Part shown: positions 33,802 through 53,798 of the stretch, one piece after another
How positions within the stretch are numbered: the first letter of the stretch is position 1
Layout of the letters: each line of letters starts with the position of its first letter
DNA from: a bacterium
GTDB taxonomy: Bacteria; Auribacterota; Tritonobacteria; UBA1439
DNA: 64,000 nt
Assembly: GCA_028716845.1 (NCBI GenBank)
Contig: JAQUPF010000004.1
Span: 128,730-192,729 of the forward strand
Direction of reading: 5' to 3'
Notes under the pieces: model-generated
What the model saw: only the letters and a program-made list of their open reading frames with translations
What the model was told of the DNA's origin: nothing
The model's database searches: none
Made by a program: the position numbers and the translations under genes

Positions 33802-34083
33802 ATGACAGCCGAACTTGAAGCCCTCGTAAAGAAGGCGGCTGCCGCCATGATATCGGCGGGAGCCCGGGAGGTGTATCTGTTCGGGTCATCCTCGCGCGGC
33901 ATTGACGATGCTGAGTCGGATATCGACCTGGCGATCGCAGGTCTCCCCCCCGCACTCTTTTTCCGTACTATCGGCCTTGCCCGGCGCATTCTGAAGAAGC
34001 CGGTTGATCTTATCGATCTCGATGAGCCGAATCCCTTTACGGACTATCTGAAAACCAGCGGGGGGCTCATTCGTGTTGCATGA
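33802..34083 (+). CDS. MNT-type minimal nucleotidyltransferase (antitoxin of a HEPN/MNT pair)
   Basis: The Pol-beta NTase motif is GSSSRGIDDAESDIDLAI. It is 93 aa with a GGGAG RBS. Confidence 0.75.
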   Translation: MTAELEALVKKAAAAMISAGAREVYLFGSSSRGIDDAESDIDLAIAGLPPALFFRTIGLARRILKKPVDLIDLDEPNPFTDYLKTSGGLIRVA

Positions 34084-34168: not shown

Positions 34169-34528
34169 TTCGCGCCTTCAGTTGATGAGAGGGCTGCACT
34201 CGCGGCTATTCTGCACGCTTTCTACAACGGCGTAGAGAATATTTTCAAACGAATTGCGCTGGCACTGGATCACGAGATCCCCCGCGGATTATCCTCACAT
34301 GCTGACTTGCTGGCTTCCATGACCAGCCCCAAACCCCATCGCCCCGCACTTCTCTCTGAATCGCTGTCCGAGACGCTTCAGGAATACCTTGATTTTCGTC
34401 ATGTATTCCGTCAGGCCTACAGTTTTGAATTGAGGTGGGAGAAGATGAAGCATCTTGTCCTTGGTTTGGGTGAAACATTCCAGCGCTTGGAGCAGGAATT
34501 GGGCGCCTTTTTAGGCAAGATGGAGTAA
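34169..34528 (+). pseudogene. HEPN-type NTase substrate-binding partner (HI0074/PF08780-like), N-terminally truncated or frameshifted
   Basis: The in-frame translation ...ILHAFYNGVENIFKRIALALDHEIPRGLSSHADLL...FRHVFRQAY... matches the NTase_sub_bind family. No ATG or GTG lies between the upstream TAA at 34166 and the first TTG at 34307. Confidence 0.45.
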
Positions 34529-35072: not shown

Positions 35073-36533
35073 CTACGCCTTCACCTCGCTCAAGGGGATG
35101 CCGAGCGCCTTCGCCACCCCCTTGCCGTAGGCGGGATCGGCCTTCATGCAGTGACGGGCGTGGCGGACCTTGATCTCCTTCGGCGCGTCGCCGAGTGCGC
35201 GGGCGGTGTTGCCGAAGAGCGCCTCCTGCTGCGCGGGCGTCATCAGCCGGAACAGCCTGCCGGGCTGGTCGAAATAGTCGACGTCGTCCTCGGCGTATTT
35301 CCAGCGGTCGGCGTCGCCGCTGATCTTGAGCGGCGGCTCCGCGAAGTCGGGCTGCTGCTGCCACTCGCCGTAGCTGTTCGGCTCGTAGGCGAGCGTGCCG
35401 CCGAAGTTGCCGTCCACGCGCATGGCGCCGTCCCGGTGGTAGCTGTGGGCGGGGCAGCGCGGCTTGTTGACCGGGATCAGGTGGTGGTTCACGCCGAGCC
35501 GGTAGAGCTGCGCGTCGTGGTAGGAGAAGAGGCGCCCCTGGAGCATCTTGTCCGGGGAGAACCCGATGCCGGGCACCACGCTCGCCGGGTTGAAGGCCGC
35601 CTGCTCGACCTCGGCGAAGTAGTTCTCCGGGTTACGGTTCAGCTCCATCATCCCCACCTCGATCAGCGGGTAGTCCTTGTGGAACCAGACCTTGGTCAGG
35701 TCGAACGGGTGGTACGGGCACTTCTCCGCGTCCTCCTCCGGCATCGCCTGGATGCAGAGCTGCCACTTCGGAAACGCCTTCCGCTCGATGCTCTCAAAGA
35801 GGTCGCGCCCGTGGCTCTCCCGGTCCTTCCCGACGAGGGCCTCGGCCTCTGCGTCCGTCAGGTTCTTGATGCCCTGCTGGCAGACCCAGTGGAACTTGAC
35901 CCAGTGCCGCTCGTTCGCGGCGTTGATCATACTGAAGGTGTGGCTCCCGAAGCCGTGCATGTGCCGGAAGGTGGCCGGGATGCCCCGGTCGCTCATCGTG
36001 ATCGTGACCTGGTGCAGGGCCTCGGGGAGCGAGGTCCAAAAGTCCCAGTTGTTCTTCGCGCTCCGCATGCCGGTGCGCGGATCCCGCTTCACGGCATGGT
36101 TGAGGTCCGGGAACTTGAGCGGGTCGCGCAGGAAGAAGACGGGCGTGTTGTTCCCCGCGAGGTCCCAGTTCCCTTCCTCCGTGTAGAACTTGACGGCGAA
36201 TCCGCGGATGTCGCGCTCCGCGTCCGCCGCGCCGCGCTCGCCGGCGACCGTGGAGAAGCGGACGAAGAGGTCGGTCTTCTTCCCGACCTTCGAGAAGAGC
36301 TTGGCCCTCGTGTAGCGGGTGATGTCGCGGGTGACGGTGAACGTCCCGTACGCCCCCCACCCCTTGGCGTGCATGCGCCGCTCGGGGATGACCTCCCGGT
36401 CGAAGTGGGCGAGCTTCTCCAGGTACCAGACGTCCTGCAGCAGCATCGGGCCGCGCGGCCCGGCGGTCAGCGAGTTCTGGTTGTTCGGGACCGGCGCCCC
36501 CACCTTGGTCGTCAGCTTCTTTTTATCATCCAT
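35073..36533 (-). CDS. katA: Monofunctional haem catalase
   Basis: The catalase signatures FDRERIPERVVHAKG-like ([15 protein letters not shown]), RLFSYHDAQ and proximal Tyr context are present. The start MDDKKKL has a GGAGG RBS. Confidence 0.9.
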
Positions 36534-36943
36534 GGTCTCCTCCCCTGCGGGGCGCCGCCTCGGCCCGCGCCGCATCGGCGGCACCCGCGGTGCAATTGTA
36601 TGAAAGAAAGGACGGGACGGCCATGAGATTTTCCGGCCGACGCTCCGCTTTTCCGCTTGACTTTCATGATGTATCTTGTTACCTCCCAACCGGTTGCACG
36701 ATCAGGAACAGGGGATGCGGGAGTGGCGCGGGAGTGCGCGGCGGGGATCGGCGACCACCTCCTGCCCCTGATCGGGAAATGCCGCTCCGCATTCCCCGTC
36801 GCCACGTTCGTCCGGGACCGCCATGAGCGGCATCCCGGCGGGGGTGAAGATCACCCGGCGCGGCGCCCGCGCGGCGCTGGCCCGGGCCCTCATGGGGGGT
36901 ATCTCCACCTGTCACGGCCGGGCTCCGGGGGGAGGGATCGCAC

Positions 36944-37255
36944 GTGAGAAAGGCGCTGTGTGCGCTGGTTCTCCTCGCATCGATCCCTCCCTGCCGCGGG
37001 GAGGAGAATCGGACCTACCAGTTCGGGGTCTCCGGCGACGGCTTCCTGCCGCCGGCCAGGCGCGACGCCTACGGCCCGGGCCTCGACTCCGACGCCACGG
37101 GCAGGCCGTTCTACTGGGCGCCGCGGGACGAGCCCTCGACCATGATGCCGCACGCCGCCCCCGACCCGACGCTGCGGGTGAAGCCGGACGGCTACGGCCT
37201 GGGCGTCGGGAGGGATCAGTACGGCAGGCCCATGGAGCGACGGGGCTGGGATTGA
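36944..37255 (+). CDS. Small secreted hypothetical protein
   Basis: A GTG start after GGGAGG is followed by signal peptide MRKALCALVLLASIPPC. Confidence 0.4.
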   Translation: MRKALCALVLLASIPPCRGEENRTYQFGVSGDGFLPPARRDAYGPGLDSDATGRPFYWAPRDEPSTMMPHAAPDPTLRVKPDGYGLGVGRDQYGRPMERRGWD

Positions 37256-37414
37256 AGCGCCCCTCCCGGGATCAACCGTGACGGCCGTCGCGGAGGGCCC
37301 CATCCACCGGCGCGGGGACGTCCGCCCGGAATTGTTTTCCGCGGCGCCGTCCGCCGGGCCGACATGGACGCGGACACCCGGCTGAACCGGTCGACGTCGC
37401 CGGTGATGTCCACG

Positions 37415-37498: not shown

Positions 37499-37527
37499 CT
37501 TGACATATTCGCTATTCGCGAATAGCG
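37499..37527 (+). promoter_or_regulatory. A -35 TTGACA followed by a perfect 18-bp palindrome CGCTATTCGCGAATAGCG (operator)
   Basis: It lies 8 nt after the right end of PRE copy J and immediately upstream of the AbiEi-like HTH gene. Confidence 0.55.
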
Positions 37528-37534
37528 TATCTGT

Positions 37535-38068
37535 ATGAATATGAAACCACAAGACGTCCTCGTCACACTAAAGCTATTGGCATCGGGATGGCCGGGAAGC
37601 TATGCGGCAATGGGCAAGCAGATAGGCCTGAGCGCCTCTGAAACCCATGCCGCTCTTCGCCGCGCACGTCAGGCTGGATTGATTCATCCGAAGGATAATA
37701 TCCCCAACAAATCGGCGGTGTCCGAGTTCCTTTTGCATGGCCTCAGGTATGTGTTTCCGGGCCATCGCGGCCCGAAGACACGGGGCATGCCCACAATCCA
37801 TGCGGCGCCACCGCTGGTTGCGGAGTTTCGTTTATCATCGTCTTCCGATGAGGATGTACCTGTGTGGCCTGATCCGGAAGGCGAACAGCCCGGCTATGAA
37901 TTCGAACCCTTATGCCGATCCGTGCCGCTTGCAGCCCGCAATGATGCCGGGCTCTACGAATGGTTGGTACTCGCGGATGCACTGCGCGGCGGACGCGCCC
38001 GCGAGCGGGAACTTGCCTCGGGAATCGTCCGAAAGCGTCTCCAATATGAAATCTGCAATACGCATTGA
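37535..38068 (+). CDS. HTH (winged-helix) regulator, AbiEi-like antitoxin candidate
   Basis: The N-terminal wHTH-like region is KPQDVLVTLKLLASGWPGSYAAMGKQIGLSASETHAALRRARQAGLI. It has lower GC and overlaps the downstream NTase gene by 23 bp. Confidence 0.5.
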   Translation: MNMKPQDVLVTLKLLASGWPGSYAAMGKQIGLSASETHAALRRARQAGLIHPKDNIPNKSAVSEFLLHGLRYVFPGHRGPKTRGMPTIHAAPPLVAEFRLSSSSDEDVPVWPDPEGEQPGYEFEPLCRSVPLAARNDAGLYEWLVLADALRGGRARERELASGIVRKRLQYEICNTH

Positions 38069-38756
38069 TGACATCGCAACTGTGGCATTGCGACTGGAAC
38101 CGCTTCGGGAGAAGTGCGTATTCACGGGCGGAGCCATAATAGGCCTCCTCATGGATGACCCGGCCTTGGTCAGCATTCGCCCTACAAAAGATGTGGATGT
38201 CATCGTCGAGGTCCGGACGCGCATTCACTATGCTGATCTTGAGGGACGACTGCGCGGGCTCGGTTTCAAACATGCTATGTCCGAGGGGGCACCTAAATGT
38301 CGCTGGATCATTGACAACATCCGCGTGGATATTATGCCGGTGACCGATCAGACCGGCGAGCTCAGCGATACATGGTTCGAGCTTGCTCTCCGAACGGCGA
38401 CGAAAGCACGTGCCGGCAAAGCTGAAATATGGATGGTGACCGCACCGTGTCTCGTTGCGACGAAACTAGAGACCTTCATAGATCGCGGCAAGGGGGACTT
38501 CATGGCCAGTCACGATATCGAGGATCTCCTAGCCGTCATAGATGGTCGTGAAGCGTTGGTCGAGGAAATCGCCGCCTCATCAGCCGATCTTAGGCATTTC
38601 ATCGCGGACAAAATAGCCGAGCTTCTGGGGAATATGAGGTTCCTTGATAGTCTGCCGGGCCATCTGCCACCCGATGATGCAAGTCAGCGGCGATTGCCCA
38701 TTGTCCATGAACGACTACGGGCAATCGCAGCGTTGGCGACTGGTTCCGACTCCTGA
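38046..38756 (+). CDS. Nucleotidyltransferase, AbiEii/DUF1814-like toxin candidate
   Basis: FTGGAIIGLLMDDPALVSIRPTKDVDVIVEV matches the AbiEii N-terminal GG(T/A)...R.(S/T).D.D motif. It is the second gene of an overlapping pair. Confidence 0.55.
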   Translation: MKSAIRIDDIATVALRLEPLREKCVFTGGAIIGLLMDDPALVSIRPTKDVDVIVEVRTRIHYADLEGRLRGLGFKHAMSEGAPKCRWIIDNIRVDIMPVTDQTGELSDTWFELALRTATKARAGKAEIWMVTAPCLVATKLETFIDRGKGDFMASHDIEDLLAVIDGREALVEEIAASSADLRHFIADKIAELLGNMRFLDSLPGHLPPDDASQRRLPIVHERLRAIAALATGSDS

Positions 38757-38925: not shown

Positions 38926-39011
38926 ATTATTCAGCCGGAACATAGTATCATGGTCCGACCCGGGAATAGAGAATACACCGGGAATACAAACTTCACCCGC
39001 CGCATGACCGC

Positions 39012-40316
39012 CTATATGCTGAGGGCCGGGCCGTACATCTCATCTTCCACGTAGCGGAATCTCCTGGCCGAAACGACGCCCACGAGCGCCCCGCCCGCGG
39101 CCCATAGAATCAGAAACAGCACGCACCGTCCCCATTCGCCGTTGAAGCTCCCGAACATGGAGGCCCTGAGCCCCCGCACGACGTGCGTGAGCGGGAGACA
39201 GTGGGATACCACTCTGTAGGGCTCAGGCGAGAGTTCGATCGGGTAGGCGCCGCCCGCAGAGGCGATCTGTACGACGAGGAGCAGAACGCACAGCAGCTTC
39301 GCCACATCCCCGAGGAGCGAGACGAGGGGGAGGATCGTCGCGCTGTAGGCAAGCGCCGCGGCGATCAGAACGGCGACGAGGCCGGCGGGGTGAACGGAGC
39401 GGATGCCCATGCCGTACCGTATCGTGACGCTGAGGAGGAGCGCCCCCGCCAGGGAGACGCAGACAGGGATCGCCCACTTGCCGGCGACCTTCGCTGCGGC
39501 GCCCCCGCCCGCGGCGCTCCGCGGCAGCACGGTGAGGCGGAAGAGGAACGCCGGCATGAGGGCGCCGACCCAGAGCGAGAGCGCCATGAAGTAGGGGGCG
39601 AACGCCGGGCCGTTGGAGGGGACGGGCGCGAGCTCCTCGTGGCGGACCTGAACGGAGACCGCCATGTGCTCGGCGTCCGGCCTCTCGGGCCGAGGGGCCC
39701 GGGTGATCTCCCGTATGACCGAGCGGACGGCGTCGAGCCCCTTGAGGAGGTCGGAGGAGAGGACGGCATTCCAACGCTCGATCTCGATCTTCCGATTGAC
39801 GTCGGCCGCCATGTCCTCGGCGAAACGCCCGCCGATGATGCTGGCGACGTAGCTCGACCCCTGCGAGGTGATCAGCGTGAGCGCGCCGGTCTTCGCGCCG
39901 GGAACGGCGCTGCCGCTGAAATCCTCGGAGACGACGAGCGCGAAGTAGACCTCGCCCGACCTGACCGCCCCCTCGGCGGACTCGGCGCTGTCGAATCGCA
40001 CGAACCGGAACGGCCGTTTCTCCTCGAGTCCCTCGACGAGCTTCTCGCCCAGGTTGTGGTGAGCGCCCCTGTACTCGGTCCCCCTGTCGAGGTTGGCGAG
40101 CCCGACCGGGAGGCGGCTCACGTTCCCGTAGGGGTCCCACATCGCGCCGAGGTAGATGACGCAGTAGAGGGAGGGGACGAGCGCGATTGCGATCACCGCT
40201 CGCCGGAGCCTGGGGCGCATCCTCAAGAGGGCGATCTCCGCCCGGAGTACGCGAAGCGCCTGCGCCCCGACGGCGCGAGAAGCGCCATCACCCGAATTGG
40301 AACTCATGCGGCTCAT
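39012..40316 (-). CDS. YhgE/Pip-domain membrane protein (ABC-2-like permease architecture)
   Basis: It has an N-terminal TM helix, a large extracytoplasmic domain, and a C-terminal multi-TM bundle typical of YhgE/Pip. Confidence 0.55.
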   Translation of the reverse strand: MSRMSSNSGDGASRAVGAQALRVLRAEIALLRMRPRLRRAVIAIALVPSLYCVIYLGAMWDPYGNVSRLPVGLANLDRGTEYRGAHHNLGEKLVEGLEEKRPFRFVRFDSAESAEGAVRSGEVYFALVVSEDFSGSAVPGAKTGALTLITSQGSSYVASIIGGRFAEDMAADVNRKIEIERWNAVLSSDLLKGLDAVRSVIREITRAPRPERPDAEHMAVSVQVRHEELAPVPSNGPAFAPYFMALSLWVGALMPAFLFRLTVLPRSAAGGGAAAKVAGKWAIPVCVSLAGALLLSVTIRYGMGIRSVHPAGLVAVLIAAALAYSATILPLVSLLGDVAKLLCVLLLVVQIASAGGAYPIELSPEPYRVVSHCLPLTHVVRGLRASMFGSFNGEWGRCVLFLILWAAGGALVGVVSARRFRYVEDEMYGPALSI

Positions 40317-40770: not shown

Positions 40771-40793
40771 AGTACCAGAAAATGGAGGTGGCT

Positions 40794-41690
40794 ATGAACC
40801 TGATTGAGATTAGCAGAATGTCGGAGAATGAGGCAAGGGAATACGTCGAGAGTATCCGTTGGCCGCAAGGCCCCGTGTGCCCCCACTGCGGCGACAAGAA
40901 GCGCGCCTATCCGCTCAAGGGCAAGGCGACGAGGTCCGGCGTATACAAGTGCGGGGCCTGTCGGAAGCAGTTTACTGTGACAGTCGGTACGGTCCTCCAC
41001 CGCTCGCATATCTCCCTGAGACAGTGGATTATCGCCTTCCATCTGATGTGCTCCAGCAAGAAGGGCGTCTCGGCCCTCCAACTTCAGCGCGAAATGGGCC
41101 TGAAGTCCTATCAGGCCGCGTGGTTTCTCGCGCATCGTATACGCGCCGCCATGAAGGAAGACCCGCTCGCCTCTCTCCTCGACGGCACGGTGGAGGCGGA
41201 CGAGACTTACATCGGGGGGAAGGGAAAGCCCGGATCGAAGCGCGGTAGGGGCACCTCGAAGATGCCGGTGGTCGCGCTCATATCCCGTAAGGGGCGCGCA
41301 TACTCGAAGCCGGTCGAGCGCGTCAACGCCAAGGAACTGAAGGGCGCGATCCGTAAGATGGTAAGTAAGGATTCCAGGATAATCACCGACGAGTGGAAAG
41401 CGTATCAGGGGATAGGGAGAGAATTCGCGGGCGGACACGAATCGGTAAATCACGGAGAAAAGGAGTACGCCCGCGGCGATGTTCATGTAAACAATGCGGA
41501 ATCTTACTTTGCTTTACTGAAGCGCGGTGTACATGGTATATTTCATCATGTCTCCCGCGAACATCTTGGACGTTACTGCGATGAGTTCTCATTCCGCTGG
41601 AATCATCGTAAAGTATCCGATGGTGAAAGGACGATCGCGGCTATCCGGGGAATCGCAGGGAAGAGGTTGGCATATCAGGCAAGCCGGTAG
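40794..41690 (+). CDS. IS1595-family (ISXO2-like) transposase
   Basis: The N-terminal zinc-ribbon is CPHCG...CGAC. The DDE region is present. The C-terminal family signature is HVNNAESYFALLKRG...EFSFRWNHR. Confidence 0.8.
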   Translation: MNLIEISRMSENEAREYVESIRWPQGPVCPHCGDKKRAYPLKGKATRSGVYKCGACRKQFTVTVGTVLHRSHISLRQWIIAFHLMCSSKKGVSALQLQREMGLKSYQAAWFLAHRIRAAMKEDPLASLLDGTVEADETYIGGKGKPGSKRGRGTSKMPVVALISRKGRAYSKPVERVNAKELKGAIRKMVSKDSRIITDEWKAYQGIGREFAGGHESVNHGEKEYARGDVHVNNAESYFALLKRGVHGIFHHVSREHLGRYCDEFSFRWNHRKVSDGERTIAAIRGIAGKRLAYQASR

Positions 41691-41711: not shown

Positions 41712-42647
41712 ATGATAAGGCAAGAATACTTATTCAATATGAGCAATGCCATACGCCAGAAATTAGGCAAGTACCAGATTTTTAATATAGATGCTTTTCT
41801 CTGGCTATCGAATGCAAAACCCAATTCTATTCATGCGGTCGTCACTGATCCCCCCTATGGGTTGGTGGAATATACAGCGAAACAACTCGAAAAGAAAAAG
41901 AACGGGAATGGCGGAGTCTGGAGAATCCCTCCATCGTTCGATGGTTGCCAACGCAGCCCCTTGCCGCGCTTCACTATCCTTAATGGGAATGACAAAGAAG
42001 CATTGAGGTCATTTTTCGATAAGTTAGCGCGCGAGCTTTTACGTGTCCTAGTCCCGGGCGCCCATGTATTCATCGCCACAAACCCACTTGTTTCTTATCT
42101 GGTTTATGAGCCGTTCATCTCCAATGGATTCGAGAAGCGAGGGGAGGTTATTCGAGTGGTTCAAACCCTAAGAGGCGGCGACCGCCCTAAAAACGCGCAT
42201 CAGGAATTCCCTGACATATCTGTAATGCCAAGGTCGTGTTGGGAGCCGTGGGGTCTATTTAGAAAGCCATGCGAGGGTAGAGTGCAGGATAACCTGCGCA
42301 AATGGCGGACTGGAGGATTGCGCCGCGTTTCAGATACCGAACCTTTCAAGGATTTGATTTATTCGCCGCCCGCACGCGGAATAGAACGTGAAATTGCCCC
42401 GCACCCATCATTAAAACCGCAGCATTATCTTAGGCAGATTGTCAGGGCAGCGCTGCCTCTTGGCAGCGGAATCATTCTCGACCCATTCATGGGGTCAGGG
42501 TCTACCATTGCTGCCGCAGTGGCGTGCGGTCTTGAAAGTATAGGGCTGGAAGTTAATAATGAGTTCTTTGGAATTGCTGAAAGGGCCATTCCGAAACTCG
42601 CCATTTATAATCCTTCCGGAGACAATAATAATGGTCCGGAATACTGA
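41712..42647 (+). CDS. Beta-class DNA methyltransferase (N6-adenine or N4-cytosine)
   Basis: Motif IV DPPY (VVTDPPYG) precedes motif I FMGSGSTIAAA, a circularly permuted beta-group arrangement. Confidence 0.8.
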   Translation: MIRQEYLFNMSNAIRQKLGKYQIFNIDAFLWLSNAKPNSIHAVVTDPPYGLVEYTAKQLEKKKNGNGGVWRIPPSFDGCQRSPLPRFTILNGNDKEALRSFFDKLARELLRVLVPGAHVFIATNPLVSYLVYEPFISNGFEKRGEVIRVVQTLRGGDRPKNAHQEFPDISVMPRSCWEPWGLFRKPCEGRVQDNLRKWRTGGLRRVSDTEPFKDLIYSPPARGIEREIAPHPSLKPQHYLRQIVRAALPLGSGIILDPFMGSGSTIAAAVACGLESIGLEVNNEFFGIAERAIPKLAIYNPSGDNNNGPEY

Positions 42648-43399: not shown

Positions 43400-44377
43400 T
43401 TAGATTGCTGGCAGATTATCAGACATAGGTTTTTGAACATCGGCTACTGGAGCCATTGCTTTTAACTTCTCCGAGATTATCCTTTCTCGTTCCATTCTAA
43501 AAGAATCTTGATTGATAACTTCAAGAATTTTTGAAACTGGCACCACAATAGCTATCCCCATATTCAACCGCTCTTCGAGAAGCGCATTATCGGACGTGCT
43601 TGCATCTTCTGATAATTTCGATTCCCAGTGACCGTGCATAAGACCCATCCAATAAAATAGTCTCTCGGCACCCGTTCTAAAAGATTTCCCTATAACGCGA
43701 CTAGCGCCGGTATACAGGAATACTGGTGATCCACTCAGCCCACCAATTGATCTGGCTTCCACCAAATAAGCGTCGATAGGCCCGAGGTCGTCCGTATGTA
43801 CCCGCTCATCTGGCATAAGTGCTATATTCCCAACTCTGACAATGGGGAGATTCTTTTGACGACCATAATGACTTGAAAATAGCCCGGTTAAAAATACCTC
43901 GTCTCCAACTCCAATCCCTTCCGATTTAATTACCTTATCGGTCATAACCATCTCTAGGGGGATAGACATATAGTCGAACCGATCAATCGGGAGCATCAAT
44001 GACAATACTGCTACATCCACAGATTTATCGTTGGGATGGAACATCCAATTTGCTAATGGAGTTGAAACGTATGCGCTTGATCCGGCAGTAGTATTCACCC
44101 TCAACCACACCTGCCCATCCGTGGCATGCTTCTTGACATGTTCTATGACGTGCCGCGCTGTAACAATGTAGGCGAAAAAAATAGAGTTATCTGTTGGGAT
44201 GGAAACCGCAACGAAAAATACAGTACCGGCTAAAGCATATCCATCGCCTACTTTAAAGCAGGCGAATGCCACGCATTTTCGTACCGTGTCCGGAACTTGC
44301 ATGGGATTACGCTCCTCTTCGGCAACGTAATACTGAGGGCATCCCCCCAAACGATAATCTACCATAAGCCTGTTCAT
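43400..44377 (-). CDS. Trypsin-like (S1/chymotrypsin-fold) serine protease
   Basis: The His motif is TARHV and the Ser motif is GGLSGSPVF (GDSGGP-like). GC is about 45%. Confidence 0.65.
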   Translation of the reverse strand: MNRLMVDYRLGGCPQYYVAEEERNPMQVPDTVRKCVAFACFKVGDGYALAGTVFFVAVSIPTDNSIFFAYIVTARHVIEHVKKHATDGQVWLRVNTTAGSSAYVSTPLANWMFHPNDKSVDVAVLSLMLPIDRFDYMSIPLEMVMTDKVIKSEGIGVGDEVFLTGLFSSHYGRQKNLPIVRVGNIALMPDERVHTDDLGPIDAYLVEARSIGGLSGSPVFLYTGASRVIGKSFRTGAERLFYWMGLMHGHWESKLSEDASTSDNALLEERLNMGIAIVVPVSKILEVINQDSFRMERERIISEKLKAMAPVADVQKPMSDNLPAI

Positions 44378-47216: not shown

Positions 47217-48269
47217 CTATTTGTCCTTTTCTGTAGGGTCTGGTGCTTTGTCTCCCGTATTATCTTCTTCCCGTTTCTTTCCTTTATCATCATATCCTAT
47301 ATCGCGATAAAGGTTGTCAAGCGGATGATCTAAACGTCCCAAGATATCTTCGACCTTGCTTGGATAGCCAAAATACTTGCTCCAATCATAAATTCCAGCA
47401 GGCGCTATTAAACTAGGCTGGCTTAATTTATCGAGGGTCTTTTGTATATTTTCTTTCATCCCTTGATCCATCTTAAGTACAGCAATATTTGCCCTCAGAT
47501 TGCCTATCATTCTATTATTTTCCTCCAGCATATTCCGAGATTCGGCACTTCTTTTTTCCAGTTCATTTTTTAGAATTCTAATAAATGATCCCATTTCATC
47601 TGCACTTCCAGCTAATCTGTTAAATATAACCAAGAATTGCTCTAATAATGGTTCACTGATACTATATGGATAACGTATCTGATGATCTATTTCGCTCCAA
47701 CCTTCTTCAAATATTGTTCTCACCTGTATCTCCGCAATGATTTCCGATCCTTTATCGGGGCTCACAGTAATTGTGTAATGGATTGACCTATATCCATAAG
47801 GATGCTCATTAATTTCGCATCCCTTTTCTTTGAATGCTCTAATGATATTTTCTGAATCACCAGATCTCACATTCGCCACTGTTATTTCTTTTAAATCCCA
47901 AGTATTTACTACATAATTGTGAATGTCTTTCCAGTCATTCTTAAAAAGGTGCAATGCCCTGACACCGATCAAATCGAATATTACTTGCCTATAGTTATCC
48001 CGATCAATCGATAAGTTATTGTCTGCAATTTGTTTCCTAATTATCTTGGCTATTAAATGTTCTGGATCCTTTATTCGGAATTTAACTGAATGAACTTGAG
48101 GTATAGCTCTCAAGTTATCAGCAATCGTGTCAGCTTGAGGCTCAAGCAATTCCATATAACTTAGATAGTTCTTTTCTATCTCTTCAAGTTCAGTCCATTT
48201 GAAACCTGTACTTTTGAAATCTTCCAAAGTTATACTATATTTCTTTAAAAACATATTTTGTGCTAACAT
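47217..48269 (-). CDS. RelA/SpoT-domain protein (small alarmone synthetase-like, candidate toxSAS or CapRel-type fused toxin-antitoxin)
   Basis: The PF04607 motifs are VKFRIKDPEHLIAKIIRK, DLIGVRA, GYRSIHYT and EIQVRTIFEEGWSEIDH. A roughly 130-aa C-terminal extension follows. GC is about 40%. Confidence 0.7.
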   Translation of the reverse strand: MLAQNMFLKKYSITLEDFKSTGFKWTELEEIEKNYLSYMELLEPQADTIADNLRAIPQVHSVKFRIKDPEHLIAKIIRKQIADNNLSIDRDNYRQVIFDLIGVRALHLFKNDWKDIHNYVVNTWDLKEITVANVRSGDSENIIRAFKEKGCEINEHPYGYRSIHYTITVSPDKGSEIIAEIQVRTIFEEGWSEIDHQIRYPYSISEPLLEQFLVIFNRLAGSADEMGSFIRILKNELEKRSAESRNMLEENNRMIGNLRANIAVLKMDQGMKENIQKTLDKLSQPSLIAPAGIYDWSKYFGYPSKVEDILGRLDHPLDNLYRDIGYDDKGKKREEDNTGDKAPDPTEKDK

Positions 48270-49467: not shown

Positions 49468-52400
49468 TCACTGGGATATATTCAGGCCGAGTTGTTCACC
49501 CTCCTGTTCTTTCGCCTTCGGAGCCTCGCGCATTTCATCCGGGACGGGCGGCATTTCATCGGATCGGAAGCATTCGCCCTCAATGACAGCATTAAGGAGA
49601 TTAGCTTGCTCAGGATAGCATTCGACTGTTGCCTCCAGCACCCAGAGCAGTTCAAGGAGTTCGGTTGTAAACTGACTGGTCCATTTCTCAGGGCGGATAT
49701 CATCGAGGGGGGATGATTTCTTCCCGGCCCCTTTCTTCATGCGATATTTAAGCCATGATCGTACAACCTTGAGTCCCGAAACTTCATACTCGTAAACCTC
49801 GGGTGTGACAGGTAAGAACTTGCCATCGCCTACATGCAGCGTTCGGTTATTTTCTTCATAATGGAACGACTCAGGATAACCAGCAGAGCTGCCGGGGACA
49901 GCCTTCACGCACTTAGCCTTACCGGGTGGGATCTGCCCCAAGCGCTTGCCTTTAGGCACAAAGCGCTCACCGTAAGTATGCAACCACAGTAGTCGCGCCC
50001 CGATATCGGAAATCTTATCGAACAGCATGCCATCCTTTGTAATCGGCACTCTCAGCTCTCGCGTTTCTAGTTCCTTTTGAAATCGCGCGGTAAAGGCTGG
50101 CTGCGCCAAGACTCCATAAAGATAAGCTGCGAAATCCTCCGGCGCTACTTTCCGTATGTACACCTTGCCGAGCTGTTCGAGCAAGCCGGGGAGGATATTG
50201 GATTGCGTTGCGTTTCTTTTCCTGTACAGGGGTACAATATCTCTCCCTCCCCTTCCGGAAAAATAGTGACGATCGGGGATTTCAGCTGCTGATGTTAATG
50301 CTGGACCTTGCCCAAGTTCCAATGTCATCGAACTTGCAAGATAAAGCTGCTTTGGGCCATGAGTGCGCCAGAGATCGGGACGGAGGTAGTCTCCGATACG
50401 ATTGTCCGCAAACATCCATTGTCTATCGAACGAACGATATGCGTAGCGTTCAATCTGCGGCGGGGAGACATTACGTGGTAAATGATTAAGAGGACTGCCA
50501 TCTCCCTGCCGGAAATACAGAAGTGGGTACCTCAATGAAATCTTCCGATCTCGTGTCTCCTTAAAGGCATTAGCCCTATCGTCTGCGACAAGCAACGCTC
50601 GCCACCTTGATTTCAAGGTTTCTATCTCATGGCAAATTGGCCAAGTTCGTTTCATCTCGCAACCAGTATGTTGCCACGGCATAATATCAGTTAAAAGAGG
50701 CCAGTTGAAATAATGGCCCTTCCCCATAGGGCGAAATGGAGCATGCCAATCGTTAAGGCAGGCCTTCCACTCTACTTTGGAATAATCATCGATGGCTTCA
50801 AGCGCAGCAAGCTTGGTCTTGCTATCGCCCTCGATGCGGGAGTAATGGACTCGGGCGGGTTTGTCTTTATTCGCCTTCTTCGCGCGGACAGCGACGGCTA
50901 TGGCGACCGGGGTCTGAATGGCGAAAACGTTTTCGCTTTTTCGCGTACCGCGACCTTCTCCGCCAAGATCAAGAATCCATATCTCTTCACAAATTCGTCG
51001 CATATGTTCCCGCATCCCACAAAAGGCATCGCCATCCAGGTAACTTGATGCGCTGATAAAACTGACCACACCAGGGCATTGCGATTTCTCGTGTTCGAAG
51101 ACCTTCCAGAGCGCCCAGCGCCAGAAATAGACATAGAGATTATAGAGATTCTTGAGGTGGACGCCATGCCCGGCAGCTATGGCAGGATTAATGAAGTCGC
51201 GAAGAATAGAGCGTTTTTCTCTTTCTGATATCCTCGCCTTTGCGCTCGTGATTTTACGTATTTGACCCCTTTTGTCCCGCTTGCGGTCGTCGGGTAAAGG
51301 ATCTCCAAATCGAACCCAACCTCCATAGCGGGCCAGACTATCCTCTCGAGTAATATCCACGGCCTCGTGACGGTCGTAAGGAGGATTGCCCAAGCAGACA
51401 ATGACGGGAACGCTGTTCTTTACTTTGAGCGCCTTTGCGTGTTGCTCCGCGATGGGTCGCAGAAAGAAGGGCAATTGTGGAGGCTCGGCATGGGGGCTTT
51501 CAAGTGTGTCGGTCAGGAATATGTGGGTTCCGTCGGCGGGAAGTGATGCACCACGGTCACTCAGTGCACGGCTGACGCGCAACTCGGTCACAGCGTATGG
51601 ACCGACCATAATTTCGAATCCGAAGATGTTCTTTGCAAGCTCAGTTGCCTGTCCCTTGACGGCCCCTTTGCCCTGCTCAGACTTGACCCGCTCCAGGGCA
51701 TGTTCAATGACACCGAGCAGATAGGTGCCTGTCCCGGCGGCGGGGTCAAGCGTGATGACGCTGGGATCGGCAAAACCCAACGGCTTGTTGAGGCGGTTGA
51801 CAAGAAGATCGTCTATCAAGCGCACCTGGCAGTGAACGACTTCAATCGGTGTGTAGTATGCTCCAGCGTCCTTGCGTAGTTTGGGATCATAAACGGAGAG
51901 GAAATGTTCATAGAAATACAACCATGGGTCCTCAGGACCGATAAATGCGGCAGTGGGAACGGCGGCGATAACGCGGAGAAGTAGATCAAGAGAGGTTGTA
52001 ATTTCGGCGCGTGCGCGATTATCGGTCAGAACTTGGAGTGCACGGGCAAGGAGATTATGTTGCGCCGCGAGCGCCTTTTCAGCGCTGGCGAGTGTTAATG
52101 GTTCGGCTCCTTCACTACGCCCCAGGAGTAAGCCAAAGGTGACGGTTTGGGCATAGGCGTCAGCAAATTGCTCATCAGGCGCATCGGGAAATAGTAATTG
52201 CCGCCAGTCCCTGGCGAGTTCAACCAGCGGCGATGACGGGTCTTTGAGCGCATCTATCACATCATCGCGCAACATCCGGCAGAGTGGTGCGAGCAGAGCT
52301 GCGAACGCCTTGAGGTCGATCTTCCCCTTCCGATCTCTCGGGATGAGCGGTTGCCACAAGAAAAAGTCGCGCAGAAGGTGTTCAAGCGCAGCCGCATTTT

Positions 52401-52851
52401 GTGTGGAAACAGCCTTCTTGCCGTCCGCAGCCACATTGCCGGAGAGTCGCACAATCCTACCAGCAAGTTCACCATTGCGATAAAGCGCCCATTCATTGCC
52501 ATCGGTATAGAGAATATTGGGAATGGCCGAAAAGCGCTTGAATTGTTCGCGGTTATGTCCTTTGAATCGCGTTGCAAACGCGCCGACTCCGGGAGCTTTA
52601 AGTTCGACGTACCCGACGAGCAGCTTCTTGACGTGAACGGCGTAATCGGGACGGCCAAGTCGGTTAGGAAGGCGCGTTTCCCCGATACAAACAATATTCC
52701 ATCCAAGGGCTTTAGCTACGGCTGCCTTAAAGTTCTCGAAAGGGCCCCGCAACTGATCCTCGGGCTCACCGGTAGTGAGCTGTGTCATCTTGGCCTTCAC
52801 GTTGGTCGCGAAGGTTTCCAAGGATTCGCGTATCGAGATGATCTTGCTCAT
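49468..52851 (-). CDS. Type IIG restriction-modification enzyme (MmeI-like: PD-ExK nuclease plus gamma-class N6-adenine MTase plus TRD)
   Basis: The N-terminal PD...ELK is RPDYAVHVKKLLVGYVELKAPG. MTase motif I is LDPAAGTGTYL and motif IV is GNPPYD. There are no helicase motifs. It is 1127-1143 aa depending on start (M at 52899 or 52851). Confidence 0.75.
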   Translation of the reverse strand: MSKIISIRESLETFATNVKAKMTQLTTGEPEDQLRGPFENFKAAVAKALGWNIVCIGETRLPNRLGRPDYAVHVKKLLVGYVELKAPGVGAFATRFKGHNREQFKRFSAIPNILYTDGNEWALYRNGELAGRIVRLSGNVAADGKKAVSTQNAAALEHLLRDFFLWQPLIPRDRKGKIDLKAFAALLAPLCRMLRDDVIDALKDPSSPLVELARDWRQLLFPDAPDEQFADAYAQTVTFGLLLGRSEGAEPLTLASAEKALAAQHNLLARALQVLTDNRARAEITTSLDLLLRVIAAVPTAAFIGPEDPWLYFYEHFLSVYDPKLRKDAGAYYTPIEVVHCQVRLIDDLLVNRLNKPLGFADPSVITLDPAAGTGTYLLGVIEHALERVKSEQGKGAVKGQATELAKNIFGFEIMVGPYAVTELRVSRALSDRGASLPADGTHIFLTDTLESPHAEPPQLPFFLRPIAEQHAKALKVKNSVPVIVCLGNPPYDRHEAVDITREDSLARYGGWVRFGDPLPDDRKRDKRGQIRKITSAKARISEREKRSILRDFINPAIAAGHGVHLKNLYNLYVYFWRWALWKVFEHEKSQCPGVVSFISASSYLDGDAFCGMREHMRRICEEIWILDLGGEGRGTRKSENVFAIQTPVAIAVAVRAKKANKDKPARVHYSRIEGDSKTKLAALEAIDDYSKVEWKACLNDWHAPFRPMGKGHYFNWPLLTDIMPWQHTGCEMKRTWPICHEIETLKSRWRALLVADDRANAFKETRDRKISLRYPLLYFRQGDGSPLNHLPRNVSPPQIERYAYRSFDRQWMFADNRIGDYLRPDLWRTHGPKQLYLASSMTLELGQGPALTSAAEIPDRHYFSGRGGRDIVPLYRKRNATQSNILPGLLEQLGKVYIRKVAPEDFAAYLYGVLAQPAFTARFQKELETRELRVPITKDGMLFDKISDIGARLLWLHTYGERFVPKGKRLGQIPPGKAKCVKAVPGSSAGYPESFHYEENNRTLHVGDGKFLPVTPEVYEYEVSGLKVVRSWLKYRMKKGAGKKSSPLDDIRPEKWTSQFTTELLELLWVLEATVECYPEQANLLNAVIEGECFRSDEMPPVPDEMREAPKAKEQEGEQLGLNISQ

Positions 52852-52964
52852 GCCGATATTGCCTTTGGATCCTTTAGGCAATTCATATCCCGTTAACACA
52901 GAAGATTATCTGTAGAGTATAACAATGCTTCCGAAATCAGGTTCCCAGATTATCCATCGACTGA

Positions 52965-53660
52965 TTACCGTCTCATTGTATCAAGTGTAACCCAATCGCC
53001 AGGAGCCCGCTCGTATCGCCAGAATGTCCACCCGTTGCAGGTTCTTCGTTTACAGGCCGCCGCCGCAGCGAGTGAGGGAGATGTGTATACCTTCCCGTTC
53101 AAGAGAATCGTTCCATCGCGCCGAACCCGCGCCTGGATACGCTGCCCTTTGTGCTTTCCTCGAATTATGAATGGACCTGAATTATATTTCCTCAGTACAG
53201 CGTTCCGCCCCCCCGGGGCTTCTATGAGCTCCTCCCGCTTTTGCGCAACACACGTCTCGCCGAACAGCCCATCAATCCGCTCTTGAAAATCCCGTTTGAT
53301 TTGCTGGCGGAACTTCCGTTGTAAGTTTTCAGAACGGGCGAACTTCCCTTTCTGCTTGTTCCCGGGGGGCTGCACCACGCGCAGGATCAATGATTCGAGT
53401 TCCCTCAGATTGTCACTGCCGATGGTCAGATAGACGGAGAACCGATCCCAGGAGTCCCTGTGCTTGTCCCGGAGATGATGTCTTAACCGGCTGCGAAGGT
53501 TTGTTGCAAGCCCCACATAATAGAGCTTCCCACGCCGATACAACGCGTATACCCCCTGCCGGCGCCGGACATAGTGTCGGATGATATTCAGGTGCTTTTC
53601 CAATGCCTCGCGCGAGATATTCTCAAGATGCTGACACACTAGCTGAGAGTGCTTGGCCAT
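52965..53660 (-). CDS. GIY-YIG nuclease domain protein with a C-terminal DUF4357-like region
   Basis: The GIY-YIG motif is GVYALYRRGKLYYVGLATNLRSRLRHH. The C-terminus has a conserved GWTFW. The start MAKHSQL follows a GGGGGAG RBS. Confidence 0.6.
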   Translation of the reverse strand: MAKHSQLVCQHLENISREALEKHLNIIRHYVRRRQGVYALYRRGKLYYVGLATNLRSRLRHHLRDKHRDSWDRFSVYLTIGSDNLRELESLILRVVQPPGNKQKGKFARSENLQRKFRQQIKRDFQERIDGLFGETCVAQKREELIEAPGGRNAVLRKYNSGPFIIRGKHKGQRIQARVRRDGTILLNGKVYTSPSLAAAAACKRRTCNGWTFWRYERAPGDWVTLDTMRR

Positions 53661-53798
53661 TATCTCCCCCCCGCCTTCAATGCTATCCAACTCTATGATG
53701 GCTATGGATGGAGTAGTTCCCCTGTGGATTTCTCGCCATAACTTGTCCTGTGAATGTGTGCAAGTCAACCGGTCTGTGCTGCTTGCCAGCAATCTCTT

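Follow-up and report, generated by a model that had tools for sequence, protein, structure and literature searches.

We analyzed a 64,000-nt stretch of bacterial DNA (the window; positions 128,730 to 192,729 of contig JAQUPF010000004.1, GenBank assembly GCA_028716845.1, lineage Auribacterota; Tritonobacteria; UBA1439), focusing on a two-gene module at window positions 37499-38756. Its gene A encodes a winged helix-turn-helix (wHTH) regulator and overlaps, by 23 bp and on the same strand, gene B, which encodes a nucleotidyltransferase (NTase) of the DUF1814 superfamily. The two products are identical to MDD5556548.1 (A) and MDD5556549.1 (B), both annotated as 'hypothetical protein' in an unclassified metagenome-assembled genome. 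A first-pass annotation, made from the sequence alone, had described the pair as an AbiEi/AbiEii-like type IV abortive infection module with a palindromic operator, and our analysis reproduced its coordinates for the two overlapping open reading frames (ORFs), the TTGACA box upstream of A, and the lower GC content of the module (0.54-0.60 vs 0.65-0.745 in the flanks). With moderate confidence, we read A-B as a self-contained, mobile cassette of toxin-antitoxin (TA) or abortive-infection type within the DUF1814 superfamily and as a member of the catalogued phage-defense candidate PDC-M21. The features of the module are:

37500-37505 (+): -35 box, TTGACA
37507-37530: putative operator ATTCGCTATTCGCGAATAGCGTAT, 24 bp, 11 of 12 positions pair, with an 18-bp palindrome as its core
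37507-12, 37514-19, 37518-23 and 37525-30: four operator half-sites of ATTCGC type, in 7-bp steps
37523-37528 (+): putative -10 box TAGCGT, after a 17-nt spacer, overlapping the right operator arm and ending 6 nt before the ATG
37535-38068 (+): gene A, 177 amino acids (aa), wHTH regulator and putative antitoxin
37535-37705 (+): winged HTH of A, predicted helices 5-17, 23-30 and 34-46 plus wing
37631-37672 (+): recognition helix of A, aa 33-46, beginning S33-A-S35-E36-T-H38
37709-38044 (+): C-terminal domain of A, aa 59-170, with invariant R83 G84 T87, V110 W111 P112, D137, Y141, W143, D148, R151, R156 and E157
38046-38756 (+): gene B, 236 aa, DUF1814-superfamily NTase, putative toxin/effector
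38127-38198 (+): motifs I-II of B, F26-x-G28-G29 ... R45-P-T47-K-D49-V-D51
38184-38186 (+): codon of T47, candidate phospho-acceptor
within 38463-38525 (+): motif III of B, K140-L-E-T-F-I-D-R147, of the KLxAaxxR form typical of COG4849
within 38463-38525 (+): motif IV of B, H156-D157-I-E-D160 (+DxxD)

DNA similarity to the nearest related locus (L001; related loci and proteins carry our L and P labels) is 82% and is confined to 37499-38730, beginning at the -35 box and stopping 26 nt short of the B stop codon, and promoter, A and B thus behave as one cassette. Neither direct nor inverted repeats hinting at a transposon were found around the module, and a terminator scan detected none after B. 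Searches with Rfam (33-41 kb) and for tRNA genes (whole window) gave no matches and hence no RNA antitoxin or tRNA integration site. A phage genome collection searched with A and B yielded no homolog and thus no sign of a phage-borne cassette. The B frame is open upstream to 37737; the 339-aa ORF at 37737-38756 (+, ATG at 37737) was considered as the true B and ruled out on the N-termini of homologs and the conserved A frame, which place the start at 38046. Extended starts do occur among existing gene calls (269 aa in P0003, 339 aa in P0391), with the result that gene A is hidden in them.

B is a Pol-beta-fold NTase of the DUF1814 superfamily with an intact active site, and by its motifs it is of MenT1/COG4849 type. 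The PADLOC model PDC-M21B matched B over nearly its full length (aa 11-229, E 1.2e-51), and a profile built from 30 homologs and run against PDB sequences retrieved Pb27 (5UVD, E 3e-6) and the Mycobacterium tuberculosis toxin MenT1 (8AN4, E 1e-4). An AlphaFold2 model of B (mean predicted local distance difference test score, pLDDT, 92.9) gave MenT1 as its best Foldseek match (8an5/8an4, E 1.6e-7 to 6e-6, probability 1.0 at the top), followed by Pb27, ANT(2'')-Ia (E 2e-4 to 6e-4), LnuA (3.6e-4) and JHP933; with the exception of LnuA, the literature groups these proteins in the DUF1814 superfamily. In Pfam, B matched PF08843 (AbiEii) at 24.2 bits against a cut-off of 22.5, through aa 123-215 only, corresponding to profile positions 128-203 of 238. 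Precomputed PF08843 matches exist for some B homologs only, and an NCBIfam search assigned B to no family. The AbiEi structure 6Y8Q weakly matched B, not A, in Foldseek (rank 37, E 0.04, probability 0.89, 211 aligned columns), which may be a spurious alpha/beta similarity.

Motifs I-IV of the superfamily, as defined by Dy et al. 2014 (PMC3985639), were all located in B, and we counted their conservation over 89 unique family sequences. G28, G29, R45, T47, K140, R147, D157 and D160 are kept in 89/89 of these, D49 and D51 in 88/89, and D95 is also invariant (88-89/89). The motif passage FTGGAIIGLLMDDPALVSIRPTKDVDVIVEV is present in B, which carries the DUF1814 signature hG[G/S]-x(n)-DhD together with the motif II Arg; the spacing x between motifs I and II is 19, vs 15 in AbiEii. 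T47, D49, D51 and K140 align with T39, D41, D43 and K137 of MenT1. The first-pass assignment of B to the DUF1814/AbiEii-type NTases was therefore upheld by the MenT1 fold match and the invariant motifs, beside the marginal Pfam score, and the catalytic residues on which that call had been made to depend, G28-G29...D49-x-D51, are aligned and conserved.

In motif II of B, T47 precedes the first catalytic Asp by two residues, the position at which the toxins of the type VII systems MenAT1, MenAT3 and AbiE have a Ser/Thr phospho-acceptor. In MenT1 the equivalent T39 is not needed for toxicity, as T39A is still toxic (PMC10435456), and it is the auto-phosphorylation site through which the toxin is inactivated (PMC11375011); the auto-phosphorylation site of AbiEii is T65. 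The complete conservation of T47, although its MenT1 equivalent is dispensable for toxicity and is the site of inactivation, suggests a regulatory role for this residue.

A combines a winged helix with a novel C-terminal domain, and it is not of the AbiEi family. Homologs of A are numerous (639 found; 2008 cluster representatives at E<=1e-10, in 50% identity clusters), and PADLOC model PDC-M21A matched aa 25-170 at E 2e-37. Its AlphaFold2 model (pLDDT 92.3) consists of a wHTH at aa 1-57 followed by an alpha/beta C-terminal domain at aa 59-170. Run against PDB sequences, the A family profile matched wHTH regulators, with YgaV/ArsR best (E 0.0025), and by profile and fold matches the domain resembles those of ArsR, Lrp, LysR and DtxR. 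Other family members match HTH_24, MarR_2 and IclR in Pfam at ~1e-4; A of the window itself has only sub-threshold HTH matches in Pfam and NCBIfam (AsnC in the latter). These results bear out the HTH that had been proposed for the first protein. The C-terminal domain, in turn, had no match in Pfam, NCBIfam, PDB sequences or Foldseek-PDB, and Foldseek against viral structures returned HTH matches only.

The proposed identity of A as an AbiEi-type antitoxin did not survive. None of the AbiEi_1-4 Pfam, PADLOC AbiE and NCBIfam models matched A or 25 of its homologs at E<=1, and AbiEi 6Y8Q was absent from the matches of the A profile at E<=10. Furthermore, the top 50 Foldseek matches of the A model contained no AbiEi or Rv2827c chain, all of them covering the wHTH only, with E>=0.28.

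Behind the TTGACA box lies the perfect 18-bp palindrome CGCTATTCGCGAATAGCG (37510-37527), as first described, which occurs once in the window and forms the core of the 24-bp operator; in a repeat search the palindrome extended to 37503-37534 at 88%. Taken by itself it is only weakly improbable, with ~0.24 palindromes of 9+9 bp expected in 64 kb by a uniform-base estimate. Enrichment of its 10-bp core ATTCGCGAAT in the window was considered as evidence for an operator and dropped, there being no enrichment (4 matches at <=1 mismatch vs 3.6 expected). What makes the palindrome more than chance is its recurrence, at this position of the promoter, across related loci. We compared operators and promoters in 78 non-redundant related loci, and a nearly identical site stood at that position in most of them, in many phyla and from Deinococcus to cyanobacteria, with proteins only 40-65% identical. 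Perfect 24-26-bp versions of the operator were present in three loci (L024, L060, L069).

The sequence of the site furthermore covaries with the recognition helix of A. The family alignment shows little or no variation at S33, S35 and E36, and changes at these positions track changes of the operator. The core TTCGCGAA was found in 57/67 loci with E36 vs 0/11 loci without it (Fisher p = 4.5e-8, not corrected for phylogeny), and the joint changes of helix and operator fall in about six separate lineages. Helices of the form S33-x-S35-E36-x-H38 pair with core TTCGCGAA, SASRVH helices with TTCCAGAA or TTCCGGAA, S.SQVF and SASHVF helices with TTCTGGAA or TTCTCGAA, and SVGEVH helices with TTCATGAA or TTCGTGAA. 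There is thus strong comparative support for A binding the putative operator at its own promoter. Of the earlier proposal that the palindrome is the autoregulatory operator of an AbiEi-type antitoxin, the operator stands, by conservation and helix covariation, and the AbiEi type falls.

A second operator-like element, ATTCTCTATTCCC, lies on the minus strand at 38962-38974, 206 bp past the B stop codon. It comprises two half-sites set one 7-bp step apart, and direct repeats lie at 38960-38995. The pattern ATTCNCNATTCNC occurs twice in the 64 kb, in the operator and in this element, against 0.18 occurrences expected. No A-like ORF follows the element, which could be left over from another cassette or have arisen by chance.

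The operator occupies the spacer of a promoter whose layout is shared by many of the related loci. TTG stands in the -35 slot (35 nt ahead of the start codon) in 32/78 loci, and TAnnnT in the -10 slot in 42/78, with TATAAT in L046, L051 and L042. Loci with a second operator register ('delta' loci) have the same layout (TTGCGC, 17 nt, TATAAT, 6 nt, ATG). Since the -10 box ends 6 nt before the ATG and a Shine-Dalgarno-like motif is rarely present upstream of A (5/80 loci), A is probably translated from a leaderless mRNA. An overlap between A and B was seen in 75/77 loci.

The pairing of A with B is obligate, and the cassette is compact and horizontally mobile. When one genome per species was scanned, a B relative turned up in at least 596 species genomes, with phyla and classes including Verrucomicrobiota, Kiritimatiellia, Desulfobacterota, Acidobacteriota, Myxococcota, Planctomycetota, Zetaproteobacteria and Chloroflexota. 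In 82/83 retrieved loci B was immediately preceded by an A homolog in the same orientation, the single exception being cut off by a contig end. The pair was also present on 115-120 PLSDB plasmids, from Rhizobium, Bradyrhizobium, Agrobacterium, Pseudomonas, Acinetobacter, Deinococcus and cyanobacteria, where the PGAP annotation reads 'nucleotidyl transferase AbiEii/AbiGii toxin family protein' for B homologs and 'hypothetical' for A. Neighbors of the related loci include Fic, HicAB, Phd, DUF2971, AAA ATPases, Wadjet fragments and transposases. A DUF2971 gene lies within a few kb of A-B in three unrelated contigs (L001 8831-9628; L086 3975-4841; L091 6604-7386); in the window, no DUF2971 gene adjoins the module.

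The complete A domain also occurs in fusions. In one type it is fused to a minimal nucleotidyltransferase (MNT), with a HepT gene downstream (PF01934, E 6.6e-23), as in L089 (58-930 and 956-1207) and proteins P0265 and P0311. The site upstream of the A-MNT fusion, ATTCGTGAATCGCGAAT, is of ATTCGTGAAT-CGCGAAT type and akin to the operator in the window; A-MNT plus HepT is a HepT/MNT TA system that has acquired a regulator-plus-operator head. In the other type, known in four variants, the A domain carries C-terminal extensions of 850-1300 aa (P0264, L091 1384-4446; P0262, L092 1058-5464; P0331; P0379), and those of P0331 (E 1e-19) and P0379 (E 1e-30) match the C-terminal (sensor) region of the defense protein Dsr1. 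The fusion genes of L091 and L092 are preceded by the same operator and leaderless geometry. A B homolog adjoined the fusion gene in 3/3 contexts examined (L091, L092 and the P0379 contig), and as the extension variants still stand next to B, A and B appear functionally tied.

PDC-M21 is one of 145 'guilt-by-embedding' phage-defense candidates in PADLOC (bioRxiv 10.1101/2024.01.29.577857), defined by adjacent genes that match the hidden Markov models for A and B. The window has just such genes, overlapping and on the same strand, in the same order and with near full-length matches; we detected no difference, and the locus is a member. A literature search for the name PDC-M21 found no paper. 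Compared with the characterized AbiE and MenAT systems, the locus is a variant with an unrelated antitoxin.

The closest characterized toxin is MenT1, of COG4849 type, and not AbiEii, of COG2253 type; to our knowledge MenT1 is the only COG4849 toxin that has been characterized. MenAT1 of M. tuberculosis (MenA1 Rv0078B/MenT1 Rv0078A) belongs to TA type VII; its toxin, stated in the literature to be COG4849, transfers nucleotides to tRNA 3' ends. MenT1 is the best sequence and structure match of B among solved proteins, and the antitoxin gene is upstream in both systems. However, MenA1, of 68 aa, lacks a DNA-binding domain, and there is no autoregulation of menAT1, whereas A has 177 aa, a wHTH and a conserved operator. 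B, for its part, is 40 aa longer than MenT1; six residues are inserted between its motifs I and II, and its C-terminal part contains a conserved LPGHLPPD...SQxR segment.

AbiE of Streptococcus agalactiae and Lactococcus lactis and the COG5340-COG2253 pairs MenAT3 and MenAT4 share with the locus a gene for a (here putative) autorepressor/antitoxin, built of a wHTH plus a C-terminal domain, ahead of a gene for a (here putative) DUF1814 NTase toxin, as well as an inverted-repeat operator in the promoter. They are carried on mobile elements and stabilize plasmids, and the type found in the window is mobile too. Nevertheless, A has no detectable sequence or fold relation to AbiEi/COG5340, and B is on a COG4849-like and not the COG2253 branch. 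The operator of AbiEi consists of two 23-bp inverted repeats 3 bp apart, whereas here there is one 24-bp palindrome with four 6-bp half-sites within the spacer, and the A mRNA is, in contrast, probably leaderless. The architecture shared with AbiE is a functional resemblance, with no evidence of homology. The label 'type IV' of the first-pass annotation is itself under revision, as AbiE has been reclassified from type IV to type VII (bioRxiv 10.64898/2026.01.19.700257).

Two further systems resemble the locus in part. COG4849 NTases have been reported to be preceded by wHTH regulators other than AbiEi, of COG4861 (PMC3985639). Such predicted COG4861-COG4849 pairs (e.g. MenAT2, Rv0837c/Rv0836c) share with the locus the wHTH regulator gene before the NTase gene and the KLxAaxxR motif III; Rv0837c is, however, described as 'much larger than the cognate toxin', whereas A is smaller than B and has no AbiEi_1-4 match. 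The type VII HepT-MNT system is linked to the locus through those A relatives that are fused to an MNT antitoxin and followed by HepT, under a similar operator, but A in the window is unfused and its partner B is a presumed DUF1814 toxin, not an antitoxin.

In the mechanism that we propose, B would, by homology, add nucleotides to tRNA 3' ends and block translation. By binding the 24-bp palindrome between the -35 and -10 boxes, A would block access of RNA polymerase and repress its own operon, as the comparison of loci suggests, and translation of B would be coupled to that of A through the 23-nt overlap, a geometry kept in many loci. By analogy with the characterized systems, A probably also neutralizes B at the protein level. 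The route might be type VII-like, with A binding inducing auto-phosphorylation of B on T47, as in MenA1-MenT1, MenA3-MenT3 and AbiEi-AbiEii; this step we propose tentatively, as a real possibility that falls somewhat short of being probable. If A were lost or inactivated, by phage infection or loss of the cassette, B would be freed, and abortive infection and/or addiction to the plasmid or island would follow.

Several points weigh against a TA or abortive-infection cassette of this kind. The Pfam AbiEii match of B is marginal and partial, restricted to the C-terminal half, and MenT toxins are weakly toxic in some hosts. Mean column identity is higher in A than in B (62% vs 50%), which is unusual for an antitoxin. 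The conservation of T47 could reflect NTP binding instead of regulation. The -10 box TAGCGT is weak and was not called by a simple promoter scan, because the hexamer matches at 3 of 6 positions only, and leaders are evident in some relatives (L037 and the cyanobacterial loci). Finally, the presence of the whole A domain, C-terminal domain included, in both the MNT and the long-extension fusions suits a generic repressor or dimerization module equally well as, or better than, a neutralizer specific for B.

The last point leads to an alternative in which A acts at the level of transcription alone, as a repressor or sensor, and B is kept harmless by low expression, until phage infection, A turnover or ligand binding by the C-terminal domain lifts the repression and releases the NTase; the pair would then be an effector gated by transcription and not a classical TA system. 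Operons with other partners (A-MNT/HepT and the 850-1300-aa extensions) begin with the complete A domain behind an operator of its own, which shows that A is a portable regulatory module; its C-terminal domain is retained in all fusions, as expected of a dimerization or sensing domain; A is better conserved than B; and the operator is placed exactly in the promoter spacer. However, A and B would be co-transcribed and, given their overlap in nearly all loci, coupled, so that de-repression would yield both and basal B would be made without an antidote. The alternative also leaves the invariant T47 unexplained, given that its equivalent is dispensable for MenT1 toxicity, and all characterized partnered DUF1814 toxins are neutralized post-translationally by their partner. 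Moreover, the variants fused to sensors still keep B beside A. We consider this explanation somewhat unlikely. A related idea, that the A domain, with its near-universal ATTCGC operator, is a portable immune switch and no simple antitoxin, and that in minimal PDC-M21 cassettes its C-terminal domain senses an infection cue and releases both the promoter and the inhibition of the NTase, with relatives wired to Dsr1-like sensors or to MNT/HepT, is speculative and in our view unlikely.

The remaining explanations concern the identity of the proteins. That the locus is a canonical AbiEi/AbiEii (COG5340-COG2253) type IV abortive infection system, with A of the AbiEi family, would accord with the gene layout, a wHTH-plus-C-terminal-domain gene before a DUF1814 NTase gene under an inverted-repeat operator, with the score of B just above the Pfam AbiEii threshold, and with the AbiEii/AbiGii names that PGAP gives to B homologs. 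We find it improbable, as no AbiEi model matched A or the 25 homologs at E<=1, the A profile did not retrieve 6Y8Q at E<=10, no AbiEi or Rv2827c chain stood among the top 50 Foldseek matches of A, motif III of B is of COG4849 type and B is nearest to MenT1 and not to COG2253, the operator architecture differs, and even AbiE is by now assigned to type VII in a recent argument. B could also be a small-molecule NTase that modifies antibiotics, of ANT(2'')/Lnu type, with A as its dedicated repressor, as the Foldseek matches to ANT(2'')-Ia and LnuA would allow. MenT1 nevertheless scores ~1000-fold better, the phospho-acceptor of MenT and the motif III/IV residues are invariant in B, and the pair, which was picked up by guilt-by-embedding inside defense systems, is found beside TA, defense and mobile genes and is carried by plasmids from many phyla, mostly from environmental, non-clinical sources; this explanation is highly improbable.

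Within the window, the cassette forms an isolated low-GC islet between genes for a catalase (35073-36689, -) and an ABC-2 permease (39012-40316, -). A low-GC defense/mobile island extends over 40.4-53.8 kb. The first-pass placement of the module at the edge of a defense island was right as to proximity, but the cassette lies outside the island and not at its edge, as the high-GC permease gene stands between. Upstream, with the catalase gene in between, an MNT/HepT pair constitutes a second small TA-type module ~3 kb away. An overlapping 152-aa ORF at 36823-37281, in a frame other than that of the 103-aa ORF in the following list, had no Pfam match. The neighboring features are:

33802-34083 (+): MNT (Polbeta/NTP_transf_2; PADLOC PDC-S09), in its own low-GC islet
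34307-34528 (+): HepT-like_2, paired with the MNT at 33802-34083
36944-37255 (+): 103-aa ORF with lipoprotein-like signal peptide MRKALCALVLLASIPPC and a 38-nt repeat at 37048 and 37171, in a GC-rich stretch just upstream of the cassette
40782-41690: IS1595 transposase, in the island
41712-42647: type II N6/N4 methyltransferase, in the island, with a 226-aa ORF behind
43400-44377 (-): trypsin-like PDC-S45 protein, in the island
47217-48269 (-): RelA_SpoT-domain protein, in the island
49468-52899 (-): type IIG restriction-modification enzyme, in the island
52965-53792 (-): GIY-YIG/RAMA PDC-S14 protein, in the island

For the window, the module is one more small mobile defense/TA cassette near a defense island, of value for annotation and unsurprising in itself. 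Its meaning for the family is broader. Few defense and TA effectors are as abundant as the DUF1814 NTase toxins (AbiEii, MenT1-4), and we know of only two types of antitoxin that have been studied with them, AbiEi/COG5340 and MenA1. PDC-M21 is a very widespread third pairing of a putative antitoxin with such an NTase, so far solely a catalogue entry, for which testable features are now in hand: a 24-bp operator with a predicted amino-acid/base code, a putatively leaderless, coupled operon, and T47. A role for T47 would extend the model of antitoxin-induced auto-phosphorylation to an unrelated antitoxin, and the natural fusions to Dsr1-like regions could reveal how phage triggers such toxins. 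If the A domain does act as a portable immune switch, it would represent a new modular coupling of phage sensing to a tRNA-modifying effector, and its recognition code (E36 with CG; R36 with CA/CG; Q36 plus F38 with TG) could be reprogrammed.

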